From positions 16,507 through 80,506 of the IMG/VR virus record IMGVR_UViG_3300005345_000001: 64,000 nucleotides of DNA; one strand, written 5' to 3'. The notes under the pieces were generated by a model, which was given only the letters and a program-made list of their open reading frames with translations, had not been told where the DNA came from and did not search any database. Positions 54,383-61,715 of this stretch are shown piece after piece. This stretch comes from a virus. Its lineage: Duplodnaviria; Caudoviricetes. The translations under genes and the position numbers were made by a program. Every line of letters starts with the position of its first letter. Positions within the stretch are counted from its first letter, which is position 1.

Positions 54383-55267
54383 CTATGCCAATGGAGGATA
54401 GCTGCCGGCTGCGCTTATGGCTTGCTCACTCAAGCCGCGCCCAGCCCTGCTGATATGTTGCCGGATCCAATCGCGTAGCTTTGGGTTGATGTCGGCCAGC
54501 CACCTGACATGGTCGGGGTGACTTGAGGTTTTTTGCGGCTGTGTGTCTTCATCCCAGGCCCTTAGGCAGTAGGCCATCACCCTAATCTTCGTCGCCATAG
54601 TTGTTTCTTGAGCCGTCTTCTGCCAGTTAAGGAACAGACGCACCGGACTGCCTTCACTTGTTTCAAAGTTGAACAGCGAACCAGCAAAGGCCAATGCCTT
54701 TTTGGGTTGGACTGAATGGTAATAGGCCAGCGATCCCACGATGTAGCCTATGTGATCCTTTGTGCCGGTCGCCTTTCTTAACACCTCCTCAATGGAATGG
54801 CCCATGTTCTGGTAAGCCAGGAGGGCTTTGGCTTGGGTGAACGTAAGCCCAGATGGGTTAGCACGGAATGCGATCCTTGCTATGCAACCAAGGCTGCGCG
54901 CAAGTGCCGTGGTGTTCTTCATCCCGCTCATGATCATCATCGTCCCAACAGTTCTTGCCTTTCCGGTATCCAACACCTCCATTATGTCAGGTGACCAGCC
55001 CTTGGACAGGAAGAACTCGGCCGTCACTCCACTGCGCCTGACTGCTTCCAACCTGTGCTGGCCTTGGATTAGGTTGCCATTGGTATCAAAGCAGATGGGG
55101 GCCGGGGCCAGTCGCCATGAACCATTCCTCAGCTCGGTGATATACTTTGCGACTGTGCTGACGGAGATGGGGCGAGGGATGAACGTGCCGGCCAGCACTC
55201 GCTTCCAGTGTTCATCCATTATTTCTCCGGCTTGTTTAGGGGTGATGCTAACGTTTTTCATGTCCAT
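54383..55267 (-). CDS. ParB/DGQHR-like domain protein
   Basis: VAKYITELRNGSW...PICFDTNGNLIQGQHRLEAV. Confidence 0.7.
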   Translation of the reverse strand: MDMKNVSITPKQAGEIMDEHWKRVLAGTFIPRPISVSTVAKYITELRNGSWRLAPAPICFDTNGNLIQGQHRLEAVRRSGVTAEFFLSKGWSPDIMEVLDTGKARTVGTMMIMSGMKNTTALARSLGCIARIAFRANPSGLTFTQAKALLAYQNMGHSIEEVLRKATGTKDHIGYIVGSLAYYHSVQPKKALAFAGSLFNFETSEGSPVRLFLNWQKTAQETTMATKIRVMAYCLRAWDEDTQPQKTSSHPDHVRWLADINPKLRDWIRQHISRAGRGLSEQAISAAGSYPPLA

Positions 55268-55274
55268 AACTTTA

Positions 55275-55739
55275 TTATGATTGCACCACGCGCACTCCGA
55301 TCGTCACTTCCAACATAATCCTCACTTCGGAGGTGGCGCCAGTGACGGCGGGCTGTGATGGGGTTGGGGTTTGGATGCTGGCACCGAGCTTGCGGAATTC
55401 TTCTTCCAGGTTTTCCTCGTGCCTGGTGAGCTCTGGACTTGGGAACTCTGGATGGGTCCGCTTGATTGGCCGCTTGATTATCGTGCGCCGCACTTCGCCC
55501 TTTAGAATCTTGTTGCGCACATACCAACCCAGTCCGGTGATGCCACGTTTGTCGGGACGATCGATTCCCAATGTGGCGAACCATTCCGGGTGATCCCTGA
55601 AGGCCGACTGCCAATCAATGTAGTTGGGGTGGTTGCCTTTGCCTTTGTATTCCCTGACCAATCGTTCAATCAGGGCGTGGTGTTTGGCGAACTTACTGCG
55701 TGGCCCGTAGACGGGCTCTGATGGGCTATCTGCATTCAT
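55275..55739 (-). CDS. Hypothetical protein
   Basis: 154 aa, ATGA-coupled to the upstream gene. Confidence 0.55.
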   Translation of the reverse strand: MNADSPSEPVYGPRSKFAKHHALIERLVREYKGKGNHPNYIDWQSAFRDHPEWFATLGIDRPDKRGITGLGWYVRNKILKGEVRRTIIKRPIKRTHPEFPSPELTRHEENLEEEFRKLGASIQTPTPSQPAVTGATSEVRIMLEVTIGVRVVQS

Positions 55740-56206
55740 TTTATGGTTAGTTTGATGTTGATGGCTAGTGTTGATAAGCGGTAGCCATTTCCGCTTCCGA
55801 ACTGCCCAGTCTCGATGAGGTTGGGATTCAGTCCAAGAGCCTTAAGTCTCTGTCTAAACTTGTAGATGACGTGACAGATCTCACTGTCCATCCGGCCGTT
55901 GCCATTGCCTTCATGTAACCAGCCCTCGATGGCGTCCTTCAATTCCTTAGCCGACATCCAGCCCGTCCCTTCGACCCGTCTGGGGGTGGGTTCACCGGCC
56001 ATGGTCAGAGCATGAGCAGCTAACGTAGCCACCACCATGAACTCAGCCAGCGACACAGCGAAGGGATTGACGCCATTGATTCTGATATACTTATTGATTG
56101 TGCCGGTGCCGCCCACGATCCACAGGCAATCGTTGGTGATGTAGGCTTCGGCTCGCATCTGTTCAACCCAAGTGGGTTCCAGGTGGGGAGGTTGGCAGTA
56201 GTCCAT
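55736..56206 (-). CDS. Winged-helix (OmpR/PhoB-like C-terminal) DNA-binding protein
   Basis: VIYKFRQRLKALG...LIETG...GYRL. Confidence 0.65.
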   Translation of the reverse strand: MDYCQPPHLEPTWVEQMRAEAYITNDCLWIVGGTGTINKYIRINGVNPFAVSLAEFMVVATLAAHALTMAGEPTPRRVEGTGWMSAKELKDAIEGWLHEGNGNGRMDSEICHVIYKFRQRLKALGLNPNLIETGQFGSGNGYRLSTLAINIKLTIK

Positions 56207-56293: not shown

Positions 56294-56533
56294 TTATGAT
56301 TCGGTCAGAATCGTTAACAACTTGAGCACATCATTAAGCTTGTTGGTGATCGTCTTCACCTTTGGCGTCACGTCGCGCCATGGAGTGGAGCTTGCCTGGT
56401 GAGATTCGATAGCAATCTCCAAGAACAGCCGCTGTAAAAGATCTTCAGCGGTGAAGTAGTTGGATATGGACGCTAGGTCCTTCTCTGTGCTGTCACTGGC
56501 CCTGGCATGCGGACAGGTTGGTTCTTTATGCAT
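56294..56533 (-). CDS. Small hypothetical protein
   Basis: 79-aa ORF in the operon. Confidence 0.5.
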   Translation of the reverse strand: MHKEPTCPHARASDSTEKDLASISNYFTAEDLLQRLFLEIAIESHQASSTPWRDVTPKVKTITNKLNDVLKLLTILTES

Positions 56534-56548: not shown

Positions 56549-57310
56549 CTATTGTGGATGGTTGAATACGATGCGGGCTAAATCGTTAGCGTTGTGATAC
56601 AGCTGCCGTGGGCGTGGGCCCCACGAGTCCCATAGTCTCTCCAGTGTGCCCATTGGCACCCAATCATGGGTCAGAGCGAAGTTAGGATTTTTCTTGGTTA
56701 GCGCTGACCATTTAGTAAAGGTGAACCCCTTCCGGCGATAGTAAGCTACGTAGGCTGAACCATTTCCGTATTCGTGGTTGAATCTACTATGGAAGATACT
56801 GTCCCGAATCAGCCTAGCCGCTGTGATTAACAGTGGCCGCTTGCGACCAGTGCCGGTGATGAAGTTGTCAGCGTTCCCTCCACACATACCAAGGTAGCCC
56901 ATCATACAATTTGGGAACGCCGGATAGCACAGCATCTGCCACCAGTCGGTTAAAGGCGCTACCGAAAATGCTGGAGCGACTCGGTCCAACCACCAGTTAC
57001 CCAGACTACAATGCAAGGTAAAGAACGCTGCGATGTATGGGAGTGAGACTCGACTGATGCCCACGTATCTGATCGGATAGACACCAGGCGGGAATTCTAT
57101 GACGCCATAGATGTAGGATGGGACCGGCTGTGTGATCAGCCGCAGTCCATCAGGCAGGATGAGGCCGTTAAGATCAAAGCCAGTGTGCTGAAGCCGGTCC
57201 ACGAATTGATCGATCCTGATCTCATTGGTGTCATTGAGGTAAGCATAGCTGTCACTAAAAGATATCGTAGGTTGACGGCGTGCCGGTCGTTTTGGGTTTG
57301 GTTTTGCCAT
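56549..57310 (-). CDS. Prokaryotic E2 family D-like protein (copy 2)
   Basis: SLPYIAAFF...APLTDWWQMLCYPAFPNCMMGYLGMCGG...SRFNHEY...W..LTKKNPNF. Confidence 0.7.
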   Translation of the reverse strand: MAKPNPKRPARRQPTISFSDSYAYLNDTNEIRIDQFVDRLQHTGFDLNGLILPDGLRLITQPVPSYIYGVIEFPPGVYPIRYVGISRVSLPYIAAFFTLHCSLGNWWLDRVAPAFSVAPLTDWWQMLCYPAFPNCMMGYLGMCGGNADNFITGTGRKRPLLITAARLIRDSIFHSRFNHEYGNGSAYVAYYRRKGFTFTKWSALTKKNPNFALTHDWVPMGTLERLWDSWGPRPRQLYHNANDLARIVFNHPQ

Positions 57311-58076
57311 AGAGAAATACGATCCTTAATAGGTTATTGAAATCGATACCCGTGCCATTCACATCACGATCAATTTCAGCGAGGCGCTGCCCCATCGTCA
57401 TCGGTGGGATAGGTGGGTCGTTCGTGATCCATGGATACTTCAGCACGAACAGCGGATCCTTTAACGACCAGGCCTGCCATCGTTCCAGGTCAGTTATGTC
57501 TGGGTGTTTTCTGTAGTTGGCCATGACTGGTGCGCCGGTGACGCTGTAATTAAAGGCACGTCCGAAGAACGCTGACCTAGCCAAGGAGTATGTCTTGCCT
57601 AATTCTTCGTTGTGAATGAATGGCCCAAGGCACATCCTAACGCCATTCCCAAAGTATTCGCAGTTGGCTAAGGCTGGCACGTAAAGTGGATCTTCCAGCG
57701 ATTCCAAGCGCTGTGTCATGAAATAACATTCTGGCCAACGAGTGGTCACCCACCTCGTCCTGTCCCACGTAGATGTCAGGAGGATCATGATCCAGGGCAT
57801 GGCTAGTGTATAGGTGCCAGCCTTTATGGGAGGATCACCTTTATATGTATTCCAATAGCTGTCCGACATCCGGACGGCGTGCAGTTGAGGTGGTATCTCA
57901 AGGACGCCAACAACCACGTTGCGGCCCACGCTGTGCAATAGGCGCACCCCATCGGGTAAGATGCCTGGAATGTTAGGCCCAGCACAGTGAGCCAGTAACA
58001 TCTGCTCGATGAAATAGTTCGATGAGATGCGCGAGCCTTCGCATGTAGCAACGATGTGATCCAATTCTATCTTCAC
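57255..58076 (-). CDS. Prokaryotic E2 family D-like protein (copy 1)
   Basis: LAMPWIMILL...RLESLEDPLYVPALANC...VRMCLG...FFGRAFNY...W...SLKDPLFVL. Confidence 0.75.
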   Translation of the reverse strand: MKIELDHIVATCEGSRISSNYFIEQMLLAHCAGPNIPGILPDGVRLLHSVGRNVVVGVLEIPPQLHAVRMSDSYWNTYKGDPPIKAGTYTLAMPWIMILLTSTWDRTRWVTTRWPECYFMTQRLESLEDPLYVPALANCEYFGNGVRMCLGPFIHNEELGKTYSLARSAFFGRAFNYSVTGAPVMANYRKHPDITDLERWQAWSLKDPLFVLKYPWITNDPPIPPMTMGQRLAEIDRDVNGTGIDFNNLLRIVFLYGKTKPKTTGTPSTYDIF

Positions 58077-58297
58077 TTGTCCTCCACCTTGGTGATGGTG
58101 TATTCATTGGGTTGTAGATCCATCCAGCCCATCGAGCTAGCCATAGCGGCATGAGACGCATCGTCCTTGTCGAACGTGTGCGGCATGACGACGGTCTTGC
58201 TCCACGTGATAGTCACCAGCTTGGTCGGGTTAGGTTTGGTTTCCATTCTCCTCTTGGGTTTTTTGTGTGGTGTTGGCTTTCGCTTGGCTCGCTTCAT
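58073..58297 (-). CDS. Small basic hypothetical protein
   Basis: GTGA overlap with E2 copy 1. Confidence 0.55.
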   Translation of the reverse strand: MKRAKRKPTPHKKPKRRMETKPNPTKLVTITWSKTVVMPHTFDKDDASHAAMASSMGWMDLQPNEYTITKVEDK

Positions 58298-58473
58298 AGA
58301 ATAACAAGAGAGAGGCCGTGATTACCCGGCTATTGACAATCGCATGACCGATTGCCTGTAAGGGAATGGAGGCGGCTAGCTTCAAGCTGTGTTCATGAGA
58401 CAACTCTTAGCTAGTCACCTGCATTTGTGTGTCCATCCACACCGCTCTCTCTGTCCCGAGGCGGGCGCTGGCC

Positions 58474-59172
58474 TTACTCAGTCCCGCTCCGGAAATCGTC
58501 CCGGTCCCAGTTACCAAGGTAGATGGGCTGGTACCGTTTCTTGGTTAGCTTATCCATCCATTCATCTGGGAATGGTGCCGGCTGGTCATAAGCGTCTACG
58601 ACATGGCCCAGTTCTCCGATCGGAAAGCGCACCCCATCCACCACCGCTTCCACGTGAAACTCCGGCCGCTTGCTATATAACCGGCCAACCACAATGTGCA
58701 GTCCTGGCCGGTGCTTTTCGTCGGCTGTGTCTACGCCGCTGGCAAAGGCCGACATGTCCACGTGACTATGGATATCTCCGAAGTAGCGCCAGCCAGCCCG
58801 TAGCAAGGGCACATCGTAGTCCACGTGCCCCGGACCTACTGTCTGCGTTGGCACAACAAACGTCACCTGTCCTGTTTCATGCACAGCCAGTAGCACAGCT
58901 ACCTCTGTGCCCCAACGCGCCGCCACATGGGTAAAGAAACCCATCACCATCTCGAATAGCGGCTGGCTTATGCGCGGATAACGGATGCGTAGGAACGGGC
59001 GATGCTCTTTCAACTCAGCGTGGAAGTCGTCCGTTGGTACGCATGAGGTGAAGAACTCGTGGTTGCGACAGATGAATAACCCATCGGCTGTCACCATGTA
59101 GAACATGGAGTCAGCCGGCCAGGGCATGTCATCGCCTGTCTTTAGGATTATCGGTGTTGTCAGTTGGTCCAT
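58474..59172 (-). CDS. JAB/MPN+ metallo-isopeptidase (PRTRC protein A-like)
   Basis: GTEVAVLL (catalytic Glu) ...GDIHSHVDMSAFASGVDTADE (HxH...S..D JAMM motif). Confidence 0.9.
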   Translation of the reverse strand: MDQLTTPIILKTGDDMPWPADSMFYMVTADGLFICRNHEFFTSCVPTDDFHAELKEHRPFLRIRYPRISQPLFEMVMGFFTHVAARWGTEVAVLLAVHETGQVTFVVPTQTVGPGHVDYDVPLLRAGWRYFGDIHSHVDMSAFASGVDTADEKHRPGLHIVVGRLYSKRPEFHVEAVVDGVRFPIGELGHVVDAYDQPAPFPDEWMDKLTKKRYQPIYLGNWDRDDFRSGTE

Positions 59173-59434
59173 GGTCTATGTCCAGTTTGGTTATGGTTAG
59201 GTTGGGTAGTTCCCTTAACCTCTCGGTTAAGTCGTCTAACGCCTTGGTAACAGCTTTCAAACAACCCTCCGCGATTAACTCCTCAGTATCATAGACGGGC
59301 TGAGTCCGGTTGATATGCTTGAGGATTTTGAGGTTGCCTTCGACTGGCCCAACCTCGTCCGTGATGGTGATGATGAGGTGGATCATCTCGGTGGTGGTGG
59401 TATAAGTGTTCCGCGTTCTTTGTTTCGTATCCAT
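59129..59434 (-). CDS. Hypothetical protein
   Basis: Lies between the Ubl and JAB genes, overlapping both neighbours. Confidence 0.5.
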   Translation of the reverse strand: MDTKQRTRNTYTTTTEMIHLIITITDEVGPVEGNLKILKHINRTQPVYDTEELIAEGCLKAVTKALDDLTERLRELPNLTITKLDIDHGPTDNTDNPKDRR

Positions 59435-59691
59435 CCTTCCGGAAGCTGCACTTCGCCCCTCTCAACTACGCGCAGCCAAGCTGCTGCCAATGAGAAGGCC
59501 CATCCATTTTCGATGCACAGCTGGGCCGCCTTCGGATTGTTGGGCTTGCTCAGGAACCACTTCTCGCCCAACGCATTCATGCGCCTGCTCTCTGCGACCA
59601 GTAGCCTGACCGGCACACTGTCGGTCGGTAACTCTACTGGCATTTGCGGCGCCGGCTTTTGTTTCTTCTGTTTCTTCTGTTTCTTCTTCAT
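59383..59691 (-). CDS. Hypothetical protein
   Basis: ATGA-coupled to the Ubl stop; KQK repeats at the N-terminus. Confidence 0.6.
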   Translation of the reverse strand: MKKKQKKQKKQKPAPQMPVELPTDSVPVRLLVAESRRMNALGEKWFLSKPNNPKAAQLCIENGWAFSLAAAWLRVVERGEVQLPEGWIRNKERGTLIPPPPR

Positions 59692-59981
59692 CCCTTCTCT
59701 CCTGCTTTGTGGATGAACATCAAGGTTTCACCCGCTCTCACGATGGTGTCAGCCGATACGTTTTGGCCATTGATGATGGCTTCCGATCTCTCATCGATGT
59801 CGAACCGCTGCCCGAACCTGTGCCGGATCTCAGCCACTGTCCGCCCGCCTACGGGCAGCCGTTCGATGTACGGGCCGACCGATATTGTAACAGTGCCGCC
59901 ATCCTGGTTGTCATTGAATATGTTGGGCAACCCGGCGCCGCCCGTCTGTTCCTGTTGTTGGTGTCCCTTCTCCTTTTCCAT
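59688..59981 (-). CDS. Ubiquitin-like (beta-grasp, MoaD/ThiS-like) protein ending in Gly
   Basis: VTISVG...LPVGGRTVAEIR...AIINGQNVSADTIVRAGETLMFIHKAGEKG*. Confidence 0.8.
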   Translation of the reverse strand: MEKEKGHQQQEQTGGAGLPNIFNDNQDGGTVTISVGPYIERLPVGGRTVAEIRHRFGQRFDIDERSEAIINGQNVSADTIVRAGETLMFIHKAGEKG

Positions 59982-60082: not shown

Positions 60083-61715
60083 TCAACTCCATGTCCGGGT
60101 CATACCACACCGGGTACACTTATCCTTCAGCGCACGGTCCAGGTTGCGCGCTTTAGTAGCTGGCATACACACCCAAGCGTCTGCTTTATCAGCCTGCTCT
60201 TGGGTTGTGCAATCTATGATAGGTTCACCATCGATTGATAGCTGTGCGCTTTCTCCACCTAGATTGATCACTTCAACCTTGTCCCGTTGCTCCCTGTTCA
60301 TGACAGCCACACACACCAAGCACACCACTAACATCTCGGGATGCTCGCGTCTGTACTGCTGCTGCTTTATCCCCATCCAAATCGGTTCATCGCACAAGCT
60401 ACACCGCTCCCGGATGGAGCCAGCTGATGGTGTAACTGTGACACGGCTATCCCTGCTGAAGCAGGGCATGCAGGCTAGGATGTGTATTGGTGTCTCCATT
60501 TTAGTTGCCCTTCCATTCATCGCCAGACGGCGGGTTTACTGCCTTCTCCAATAGTTCCTGGTGGAAATCGTGGATCTTGTTGTGTAGTTTCTCGGTGAAC
60601 CTATAGATTGTGAAGTGATGGATGATGTATCCGATTATTATCCCAGCCATCAAACCGATGGTGCCAAAGACGAACTGATCAAGCACACCGAACGCTAGCG
60701 CAACGAACATCACTGCGTTGCCAGCTGTGAAGTAGAAGCAGAACGGCAGTATCGCTTTGGCAAATACCATTGCTATCTCACGCAAGTTGATGGGTTTCAT
60801 AGCTTTTCCAACCACACTAATAGGTCATCGCCATCGAGCTGGCGCCTGAGCATAAATCCGTGACGTTTTACCACGCCGGCTAGACCGCCAAGCAGATAGG
60901 CGTCGCGGGCAGTAGTGACCCGCAGACAGTTACCCGGCGGCAGCTTGAGAAGTAAACCAGTGAGACCTGTCCGCCCGCGCCGAGACGACGTCGGGACCTT
61001 TTCAATTGAGAATCGTTCACTCATTGGTACTATCCTGCCGGTTGATGATTACGTCGGTCCGATCATTGTGAATGACGGTATGCTCGTCGAGCAGGCCAAG
61101 GCTCTGGATGTAATCGATGGTGTCTTGTGGGGTCTTCATGTAGGCAACCTGCACCTCCATCTTGCCGTCCGGTATTCTATGTGTGACGCATTTGCCTGCC
61201 TTAATTATCTCCGGCTCATCCCCATGCAGGACGATGGTGACAACGGTGTGCCCGTCTTTATGTTCAGCTACGCCTATGATCATGGTTGTTTCCCTTTAAT
61301 CTTGGACAGGAACGACCACGTCACGCATCTCGGTGTAGTATAGTGGTCGTCGCTTTAGCCACAGCTTATACCACACTCGCTTTCGTGGGATGCGGCTGAT
61401 CACGTTTGGATCCCGTAGGAATTCCAGATTGATCATGTCCTCCTGCGTCAGCCCGAAACCGAACAGGGTTTTCAACAGTTCGTGATGGGTCTGGCCAGTG
61501 ATGGGGCATTGAGCTGCCATCCTCTGTCTCCAGGTAGCTTGTTCCTTGGCCCCTATTGGAATCCTAGGACTCAATTGGCCCGGCGTCAGGCCCAACAGGG
61601 CACACACCAACACGCCGCAGTTGCAGCGGCTAGCTTCATGCCAGTTGTAGTGGAATCGACCCTGCTCCAAGGCTGAAGCAGCCGCTCGTAGGGATGTTAT
61701 TAGTTTGGTTTTCAT
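60083..61715 (-). CDS. Five small hypothetical genes (60083-60520 Cys-rich; 60501-60800 two-TM; 60797-61024 small DNA-binding-like; 61017-61283; 61296-61715)
   Basis: Tightly packed minus-strand ORFs. Confidence 0.55.

Follow-up and report, generated by a model that had tools for sequence, protein, structure and literature searches.

An E1-less module, probably derived from a ubiquitin-like protein cassette, in the complete 80-kb genome of a soil/rhizosphere phage

Conjugation of ubiquitin-like proteins (Ubl) in bacteria has been studied as a host defense, with type II CBASS, Bil and Bub as examples. Here, we analyze a phage module that encodes a predicted Ubl tag, a JAB peptidase and two E2-like proteins, and that resides in a genome without a detectable E1. 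The module lies in a stretch of 64,000 nucleotides (termed the window from here on), which corresponds to bases 16507-80506 of the IMG/VR record IMGVR_UViG_3300005345_000001, the complete 80,506-bp genome of a soil/rhizosphere phage. A direct terminal repeat of 110 bp and the CheckV estimate of 100% support its completeness, and the same proteins are also present on independent assemblies of 80,110 and 78,854 bp. The metagenomes that contain the stretch come from rhizosphere and soil; there is no RNA run among those listed, which has no bearing on expression. All genes of the module are on the minus strand, within an early-type region that is rich in small genes, and not among tail genes.

The Ubl is a protein of 97 aa (59688-59981) that ends with HKAGEKG directly before the stop codon. 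Its stop forms an ATGA overlap with a 102-aa open reading frame (ORF; 59383-59691) that has a Lys/Gln-rich N-terminus. The following ORF can be read as 101 aa (59129-59434), but a start at Met17, giving 85 aa (59129-59386), is likelier because this ATG forms an ATGA overlap with the preceding stop. Next is the JAB peptidase (58474-59172), whose probable true start is Met23 at 59106, the position at which its relatives begin. A 74-aa ORF (58073-58297) separates it from the two E2-like paralogs, E2A (273 aa, 57255-58076, ...ALANCEYFGNGVRMCLG...) and E2B (253 aa, 56549-57310, ...AFPNCMMGYLGMCGG...). Their putative catalytic residues are Cys149 (codon 57630-57632) with Asn138 in E2A and Cys143 (codon 56882-56884) with Asn134 in E2B. 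An initial annotation of this DNA had listed the 97-aa Ubl, the small ORFs, the JAB and the two E2-like genes, and all of them were recovered at these positions. Two related phage lineages, represented by the contigs L005 and L006 (the phage of the IMG/VR record G001) and by L011, keep the same order: a Cys-rich protein, Ubl, 84 aa, JAB, a small ORF, E2a, E2b, and then proteins of 80, 155, 170 and 292 aa. Because the order is kept in both and the E2-like profile matches 1,318 sequence clusters, this is a real, conserved early-region module and not a chance arrangement. We have high confidence in the identity of its parts and in the absence of an E1.

The Ubl is predicted to begin with a disordered stretch of about 30 residues (MEKEK...), which is followed by a beta-grasp core and a free tail with AGEKG at its end. 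An AlphaFold2 (AF2) model based on seven homologs has pLDDT values of 88-92 over residues 30-91 and shows a b-b-a-b-b-b topology. In Foldseek the model retrieves ubiquitin, SUMO, NEDD8, MoaD, SAMP1 and TtuB with a probability of 1.00 (TM 0.6-0.7 and a root-mean-square deviation (rmsd) of 2-3 Å over 70-77 columns), so that the model bears out the earlier proposal of a beta-grasp tag with a free C-terminal glycine. At the level of sequence the similarity is faint: Pfam ThiS scores 16.8 bits, under the cut-off of 22.5, and a Ubl profile gave noise only against PDB sequences. We thus predict that the protein is a ubiquitin-like beta-grasp modifier with a tail ending in Gly. It is 75-79% identical to the Ubls of L005 and L011 and 41-54% identical to those of related cassettes that do carry an E1, and the C-terminal GEKG is invariant in the seven homologs, including the ones from E1-bearing cassettes. 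What comes after the motif (A/S)G(E/T/V)KG varies among the other cassettes, from 0 to about 85 residues to a fused AAA+ ATPase, while the Ubl of the window stops exactly at Gly97, and the homologs P0160 and P0161 likewise end at the Gly. One such fusion is found on the 60-kb phage contig L017 (6040-8004), where a Ubl domain that is 57% identical to that of the window forms the N-terminus of a proteasome-type AAA+ ATPase; a tag in this arrangement would therefore need excision after GEKG.

The JAB protein passes the Prok-JAB (PF14464) cut-off of 25 bits with 27.4 bits, and with 29.2 bits in a six-frame search. Its JAMM motif is intact (E90, H135-S-H137, S145 and D148), as the initial annotation had read from the sequence, and it is invariant in six cassette JABs. 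An extra domain with a conserved CRN motif precedes the peptidase domain. The sole NCBIfam match is PRTRC_A with 45.4 bits against a cut-off of 101.8, and hence the equivalog score is not reached. Identity amounts to 70-74% with L005 and L011 and to 39-53% with the JABs of full cassettes.

The assignment of E2A and E2B required more lines of evidence. The two proteins are deeply diverged paralogs (BLASTP E 2e-10, 24% identity) and are 35-39% identical to their counterparts in L005 and L011, with E2A at 37% to L005 and E2B at 39% to P0005/P0006. Neither has a match in Pfam, NCBIfam, PHROGs or PADLOC, and specifically neither matches Prok-E2_D (PF14460, cut-off 25 bits) at E≤1; a profile of the family found nothing among PDB sequences at E≤10. 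A word-index search returned two or three relatives for each E2-like protein, and a search for related loci with E2A alone returned none. Searching exhaustively with HMMER and a profile of seven sequences gave a different picture: 1,318 representative clusters at E≤1e-3, 447 of them at E≤1e-10, make this a large and mostly viral family. P41, P94, N138, C149 and W200 (E2A numbering) are invariant in an alignment of 73 sequences, and N138, C149, N176 and W200 in a set of 43 that holds every paralog of every cassette. E2 enzymes have an HPN...C active-site loop, and the same arrangement of Asn followed by Cys is seen in the local motifs of E2A (...PALANCEYFGNGVRMCLG...) and E2B (...PAFPNCMMGYLGMCGG...), where the Cys follows 9-11 residues after the Asn.

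The AF2 model of E2A (pLDDT 84.2, pTM 0.77) places a helix (H19-31), a beta-meander, a hairpin that carries N138...C149, a helix H159-172 and further helices in this order. Foldseek found nothing for this model in the PDB at E≤0.001. In a blind VIA-align comparison with 48,161 chains about 20 of 50 rows were UBC, UEV or RWD chains, among them UbcH10, UBE2E1, BubC (9eav_D), UBC12, Cap2 (7to3_A) and the E2 of E2-CBASS (8hsb_B, Z 4.0), with Z scores of only 3.6-4.7. In a second look about 33 of 50 rows were E2s, with Ubc13 (3hct_B) on top (Z 4.9, rmsd 4.2 Å, 123 of 148 residues aligned); all Z scores for E2A are below 5 and too low to establish the fold by themselves. Links to known E2 families come from individual members. 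One of the 73 family members reaches PF14460 at 9e-7, two long fusion proteins do so at about 1e-4, under the cut-off, and one of the 73 reaches PRTRC_B at 3e-4. In the ESM Atlas 25 of the 30 clusters nearest to E2A, mostly viral, have PF14460 in 19-30% of their members. The strongest support for an E2 nature is the gene context, as the family adjoins ThiF and Ubl genes in 13 loci. Family links, motif, context and the weak fold match together make it probable that E2A and E2B are of UBC nature. The earlier label of E2 family-D-like proteins thus stands in so far as both are Cys-bearing and UBC-like; membership in PF14460 does not, and by sequence the two are best described as a sister family of Prok-E2_D with a distant relationship to it.

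E2A also shows variation of its own. L019, a contig from another metagenome, is 100% identical to the window at the nucleotide level on both sides of a tract of about 530 nt within E2A (57370-57900, residues ~60-235), all of E2B included, while the tract itself is only 61-92% identical. The diverged tract contains all substitution types and two indels and retains Asn138 and Cys149. It resembles an imported allele or a hot spot of variation within the core of the E2; a diversity-generating retroelement was rejected as its source, given substitutions of all types and the indels. E2-like domains are further found in large proteins of 851-854 aa on two jumbo-phage contigs (L021:7394-9946 and L024:7382-9943), where an N-terminal E2-like domain is followed by about 570 residues without a family match.

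The gene that would be expected next to these parts is missing. ThiF/E1 (PF00899) has no match across the complete 80,506-bp genome. A hidden Markov model (HMM) built from the E1s of the related cassettes and run with filters off on the whole genome reached a best E of 1.5, which was also the best E in tblastn. The statement that the 64 kb hold no E1 can hence be extended to the entire genome, and the case of an E1 just outside the window, which the initial annotation had named as counting against its reading, is excluded. ThiF is also not among the 25 of 33 matched Pfam families that are listed for 70 proteins of the genome, and an E1 hidden in the two giant virion proteins was ruled out by six-frame searches. 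The same holds for the AAA+ ATPase: there is no PF00004 match in the whole genome, a cassette-specific AAA HMM gave noise only, and the lone tblastn match with an AAA query is the Ubl domain of the L017 fusion aligning to the Ubl gene of the window. Pfam and NCBIfam searches of the module proteins likewise gave no ATP-binding motif or domain. Compact cassette E1s have 255-276 aa, and the 74-, 85- and 102-aa proteins would therefore be too small for an adenylating domain. In the sister lineage no ThiF was found in L005 (20.8 kb) or in the record G001 (44 kb), both of which are partial genomes.

The absence gains its meaning from the comparison with related loci. A full cassette consists of a proteasome-type AAA+ ATPase, a Ubl, one to three E2-likes, a JAB and a compact ThiF-type E1. 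L016 encodes a AAA+ protein of 519 aa, a Ubl of 107 aa (...VAGEKG plus 9 residues), an E2-like, a JAB and ThiF; L017 has two E2-likes, the Ubl-AAA+ fusion, a third E2-like, ThiF and JAB; L018 and L033 have AAA+, Ubl, two E2-likes, JAB and ThiF. A JAB-based scan added the IMG/VR contigs L021-L024 with E2-like, JAB, E1 and Ubl genes and L025, on which E1 and JAB alone were detected. It also added L026-L030, contigs of metagenome-assembled genomes (MAG) of Verrucomicrobia and Gemmatimonadetes with the order AAA-Ubl-E2-JAB-E1 or whatever part of it the contig holds. Two cultured jumbo phages, Vibrio phage D69 (L034, OZ195729.1:173528-175586) and Salmonella phage Arash (L035, OQ632216.1:176281-178559), carry a JAB followed by a cassette-type E1-like gene, with annotations as "hypothetical protein" or "structural protein". 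Each of the 16 related cassettes examined (L016-L018, L021-L030, L033, D69 and Arash) has an E1 adjacent to the JAB or not far from it, and the proteasome-type AAA+ ATPase is present in most of them. Among the loci examined, only the lineage of the window, L005 and L011 is without both E1 and AAA+. Homologs of the Ubl, the JAB and the E2-like proteins occur together, as judged by HMM and phmmer searches, in L016-L018, L026-L030 and L033. A related-locus search with a close JAB alignment had returned the sister phage only.

Two of these loci deserve a closer description. L017 is a relative of the window phage at the level of the genome, since it shares a ParB-like protein (E 2e-73) and two more genes. 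On the 108-kb MAG contig L026 (6876-11465 and 12099-15578) the cassette has a 1159-aa LRR-Roc GTPase protein, a DUF3239 protein and a GNAT as neighbors, a bacterial setting and possibly a conflict-system context. Its JAB is 45% identical to that of the window and its Ubl, with a core that looks much like that of the window, ends with RAGEKG followed by AGLPS.

The window module and the full cassette thus share a homologous Ubl with the invariant GEKG, a homologous JAB, the same E2-like family with recurring paralogs and, in L017, the linked ParB-like gene. They differ in that E1, AAA+ ATPase and any member of the "core" E2 clade described below are missing from the window phage, which has a rearranged gene order and possesses the lineage-specific 74-, 85- and 102-aa genes and a Cys-rich protein beside the Ubl. 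The best reading is that the module is a reduced derivative of a cassette that is widespread in phages and mobile elements. The initial annotation had seen a candidate for an undescribed system here; on the present reading the module does not stand by itself but is a cut-down form of the AAA+, Ubl, E2, JAB and E1 set. A literature search, with most subscription journals outside its coverage, found no description of a phage Ubl cassette, either full or E1-less. New here is the E1-less, AAA-less derivative of the cassette in a complete 80-kb genome.

How the reduced form may have arisen is suggested by a maximum-likelihood tree of the E2-like family. The E1-adjacent "core" E2s of L015-L018 and 21 further database sequences form a clade with support of 97/94. 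In this unrooted tree both window paralogs fall outside the core clade, on long branches and in the company of the additional paralogs from L017 and L018, which changes the picture given by the initial annotation. L017 carries the AAA+ ATPase, the core E2 and the E1 side by side, after the Ubl domain and before the JAB, and one deletion could therefore explain the loss. If such a deletion removed everything from directly behind GEKG up to and including ThiF in an L017-like order, the Ubl would come to lie beside the JAB, as in the lineage of the window, and all three genes may thus have been lost together.

The genes that remain are under selection. All frames are open, and dN/dS ratios (nonsynonymous over synonymous substitution rates, Nei-Gojobori) indicate purifying selection, with 0.07-0.09 for the Ubl, 0.13-0.19 for the JAB, 0.39-0.44 for E2a and 0.33 for E2b (L005 versus L011); the underlying dS ranges from 0.26 to about 2, with the largest values saturated. 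All three lineages retain the terminal Gly, the JAMM motif and, in both paralogs, the Asn and Cys. Such conservation of an isopeptidase points to the existence of conjugates to cleave, and a conserved free Gly together with a conserved Cys points to loading of the tag.

Among the described systems the closest kind is the operon type 6d of Iyer, Burroughs & Aravind 2006, which corresponds to PRTRC (NCBIfam TIGR03734-03742; Pfam Prok-E2_D and Prok-JAB). In type 6d, which is carried by mobile elements, a small Ubl that has a C-terminal Gly occurs together with an E1-like protein, a Cys-bearing E2-like protein and a JAB that has an additional N-terminal domain (PMC1779556). The window has separate genes for the same kinds of Ubl, JAB and E2-like protein, is likewise carried by a mobile element, has PRTRC_A as the sole NCBIfam match of its JAB, and has a ParB-like gene nearby. 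The differences are considerable. A JAB and an E1 form the constant core of all five operon types (PMC1779556), a rule that the window breaks. Only the JAB matches a PRTRC model, under the cut-off (45 versus 101.8 bits), while E2A, E2B, the Ubl and the 294-aa ParB-like protein have no NCBIfam match to PRTRC_B, PRTRC_C or PRTRC ParB at E≤1. The E2 of type 6d has an absolutely conserved downstream His (PMC1779556), which is not among the invariant residues of the family described here, and the carrier is a lytic-type phage genome instead of a plasmid or an integrative and conjugative element.

Bil, Bub and type II CBASS with Cap2/Cap3 resemble the module in that they combine a prokaryotic Ubl or Ubl-like C-terminus with an E2-fold enzyme, a fold that is probable for E2A and E2B, and a JAB peptidase, and BubC (9eav_D) and Cap2 (7to3_A) are among the weak structural neighbors of E2A. 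These systems serve host-side defense, though, and always contain an E1 or an E1 domain, while the window module is carried by a phage and has none. Membership in a modeled defense family such as CBASS Cap2/Cap3, systems that the initial annotation had named for comparison, was not borne out, as PADLOC-DB 2.0.0 (2023 library) has no family at E≤0.1 for any of the 8 module proteins; PHROGs has no family for any core module protein. The E2-only ("short") type II CBASS has an E2-fold enzyme that works without an E1 in the operon, as E2A and E2B, with their probable UBC fold, might do. It has neither Ubl nor JAB, and its E2 acts by cutting an extension at the C-terminus of the cyclase, whereas the Ubl of the window has no extension. 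A phage-encoded Ubl with a conserved Gly and a JAB without an E1 are also known from the TAPI (Ubl) and TAPK (JAB plus NlpC/P60) proteins of lambda and T1. In contrast to the window, with its two E2-likes in an early-type region, these belong to a tail module without E2-like genes, and their Ubl has a C-terminal domain.

Several smaller genes accompany the core. The 85-aa protein is weakly similar to the 84-aa proteins of L011 and L005 (E 2e-5 and 8e-4), with which it shares the C-terminal motif (T/P)D(N/T)PKDR(R/G) and the place between Ubl and JAB. The C-terminal 58 residues of the 74-aa protein are conserved in the E1-less lineage only (62-64% identity to 59-60-aa proteins of L005 and L011), with no homolog in the E1-bearing loci L015-L018. 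For the 102-aa ORF neither tblastn nor blastp gave a match in L005 or L011, Pfam, PHROGs and NCBIfam gave no family match, and it is best treated as a putative gene without counterpart in the relatives. Directly upstream of the Ubl, on the same strand, a 145-aa protein with four CxxC motifs (residues 17, 40, 67 and 135) is encoded at 60083-60520. It is 64% identical to proteins in the same position in L005 and L011, and weak homologs adjoin the ParB-like gene in L017 and L031. No family was found above threshold, Atlas scores are at most 0.86, and its homologs have only sub-threshold matches to zinc-ribbon or RING-like families. The protein is a possible zinc-ribbon partner whose belonging to the module is uncertain, and an E3-like role would be speculation.

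Downstream of E2B, again on the minus strand, are three more conserved ORFs (56294-56533, 55736-56206 and 55275-55739) and a 294-aa protein with a QGQHRLEA motif (54383-55267). The 156-aa protein at 55736-56206 is the most conserved gene of the neighborhood (81% identity to L005); it has no family match, and its C-terminal part looks like a winged helix by eye (OmpR-like ...GYRL). The 294-aa protein matches phrog_5931 (E 3e-27), a PHROG of unassigned function, and has homologs near E2-like genes in L005 (59%), L017 (E 2e-73) and L031 (E 7e-38). Pfam, NCBIfam and PDB sequences gave no support for a function, and DndB, matched by the L031 homolog at E 0.049, is the sole family lead. We keep "ParB/DGQHR-like" as a resemblance by eye, and its membership in the module is uncertain. 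On the 4.8-kb contig L031 (798-3518) an E2-like gene directly adjoins homologs of the ParB-like and the Cys-rich proteins, with neither Ubl nor JAB on this contig. The linkage of E2-like and ParB-like genes in three lineages recalls the name PRTRC. Elsewhere in the genome the Pfam scan of 70 proteins identified four HNH endonucleases, a GDP-mannose dehydratase/epimerase set, several methyltransferases, a radical SAM enzyme, a cytidylyltransferase, a YspA/SLOG protein, a DprA-like protein, a cold-shock protein and an integrase-family protein.

What could such a module do? We tentatively favor, at slightly less than an even chance, that it is a reduced cassette that still handles its tag and would depend on an E1 acting in trans. 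The remaining parts would attach the tag to proteins in the infected cell and remove it again. Gly97 would be adenylated by a cassette-type E1 from the host or a co-resident element, the tag would be transferred to Cys149 (E2A) or Cys143 (E2B) and from there to the targets, and the JAB would take it off. Thioester formation, the source of the E1 and the targets are the elements of this scheme that we infer. Ligation of a mature Ubl requires an energy input, and an E1 supplied in trans would be the simplest remaining option. That it is feasible is seen from L026, where a full homologous cassette exists in a bacterial context. Housekeeping MoeB or ThiF would be less likely donors. Housekeeping E1s prefer a GG ending, as in ThiS, MoaD, SAMP and ubiquitin; the window tag ends with KG, and borrowing of MoeB or ThiF is doubtful for this reason.

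Apart from the KG ending, several points speak against an E1 in trans. The absence of the E1 in the sister lineage is based on partial contigs only. The UBC fold of the E2-likes comes with weak structural scores (Z≤4.9, Foldseek blank), and E2A and E2B themselves are without any Pfam, NCBIfam or PDB-sequence match. Moreover, the deletion scenario presumes that the gene order of L017 is ancestral, gene order differs otherwise, and the E2 tree is unrooted with the window clades on long branches. A bolder formulation, in which the phage runs or subverts Ubl tagging without an E1 of its own, is doubtful in our view; here either a host E1 would charge the tag, so that a host Ubl system is parasitised or jammed, or the E2-likes would use an undescribed activation chemistry for an extension-less Ubl. 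Taken together, the interpretation given in the initial annotation is partly supported, with a borrowed host E1, a decoy role and the removal of defense tags as hypotheses.

Other explanations have to be weighed against a tag that is charged in trans. The module might serve counter-defense by mimicry, where the phage Ubl and E2-likes soak up host E1 or charged Ubl and the JAB strips host-attached tags from phage proteins. Bacterial Ubl systems do act against phages, as in the case of Bil, which tags the central tail fiber (bioRxiv 10.1101/2023.09.04.556158), and homologous full cassettes occur on bacterial-context contigs, in L026 beside an LRR-Roc protein. An E1-less module would be sensible if it feeds on a host E1, and the fast evolution of E2A (37% identity to L005 versus 77% for the Ubl, and the diverged tract of ~530 nt) is as would be expected at an arms-race interface. 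Still, nothing marks the bacterial cassettes as defense systems, and none of the module proteins matches PADLOC. That related phages carry the whole cassette, E1 included, speaks for an ancestor in which tagging served the phage itself, and we consider mimicry unlikely. The tag might instead be ligated without any E1, if one or both E2-likes activate it themselves as the lone E2 of E2-CBASS does. SmE2 alone links covalently to the C-terminal region of CdnG while removing a C-terminal fusion, and the E2 of E2-CBASS, a Cys protease-transpeptidase acting on the C-terminal tail of the cyclase, provides the one documented E1-free bacterial E2 route (PMC12948482). CdnG-E2 (8hsb_B) is among the structural neighbors of E2A (Z 4.0), and two Cys-retaining paralogs have been maintained without an E1. 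However, the energy in this reaction comes from cleavage of the peptide bond after the Gly. The window Ubl ends at Gly97 and leaves nothing to cleave, and the module proteins have no detectable ATP-binding motif or domain. Since the tag has no C-terminal extension, we rank an E2-CBASS-type route low and regard it as improbable.

The two remaining alternatives question the enzymes themselves. If E2A and E2B were Ubl-binding or structural proteins, with a UBC-like or an unrelated fold, the working unit would be Ubl plus JAB as in the lambda-type tail assembly by TAPI and TAPK. The low Z scores (<5), the blank Foldseek search and the lack of a curated family would fit this, and for tail-assembly clusters of phages, which have neither E1 nor E2, it has been argued that Ubl and JAB function as a unit (PMC1779556). 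Yet an invariant Asn is followed by an invariant Cys, 9-11 residues on in the window paralogs, throughout 43-73 sequences, and the spacing and the secondary-structure position in the model would fit an E2 active-site loop. E2 chains account for about 20 of the 50 rows in the blind and for about 33 of 50 in the second VIA-align comparison, some family members reach PF14460 or PRTRC_B, the family adjoins ThiF and Ubl genes in 13 loci, and the module sits among early-type small genes and not tail genes. There is little chance, in our opinion, that the E2-likes are not enzymes. Finally, the module might be a relic that is functionless and decays after the loss of the E1. The missing E1, AAA+ ATPase and core E2 and the faster evolution of the E2 paralogs compared to the other parts could be read in this way, but every reading frame is intact, the catalytic residues and the C-terminal Gly are retained across three lineages at dS values up to about 2, and dN/dS is well under 1 for every gene. 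Decay is thus very unlikely.

The phage can be seen as a natural "E1 knock-out" of the cassette, yet selection still acts on the tag, the peptidase and both of the Cys-bearing E2-like genes. An E1-less module leaves three options: a host E1 activates the tag in trans, the module interferes with a Ubl system of the host, or there is a new route that needs no E1. The parts of the module are small and easily expressed, and the cultured jumbo phages D69 and Arash, which carry JAB-E1 pairs of the same family, are a possible source of a cognate-type E1 and possible experimental models. If true, any of the three would tell us how ubiquitin-style tagging is exploited or countered by phages.

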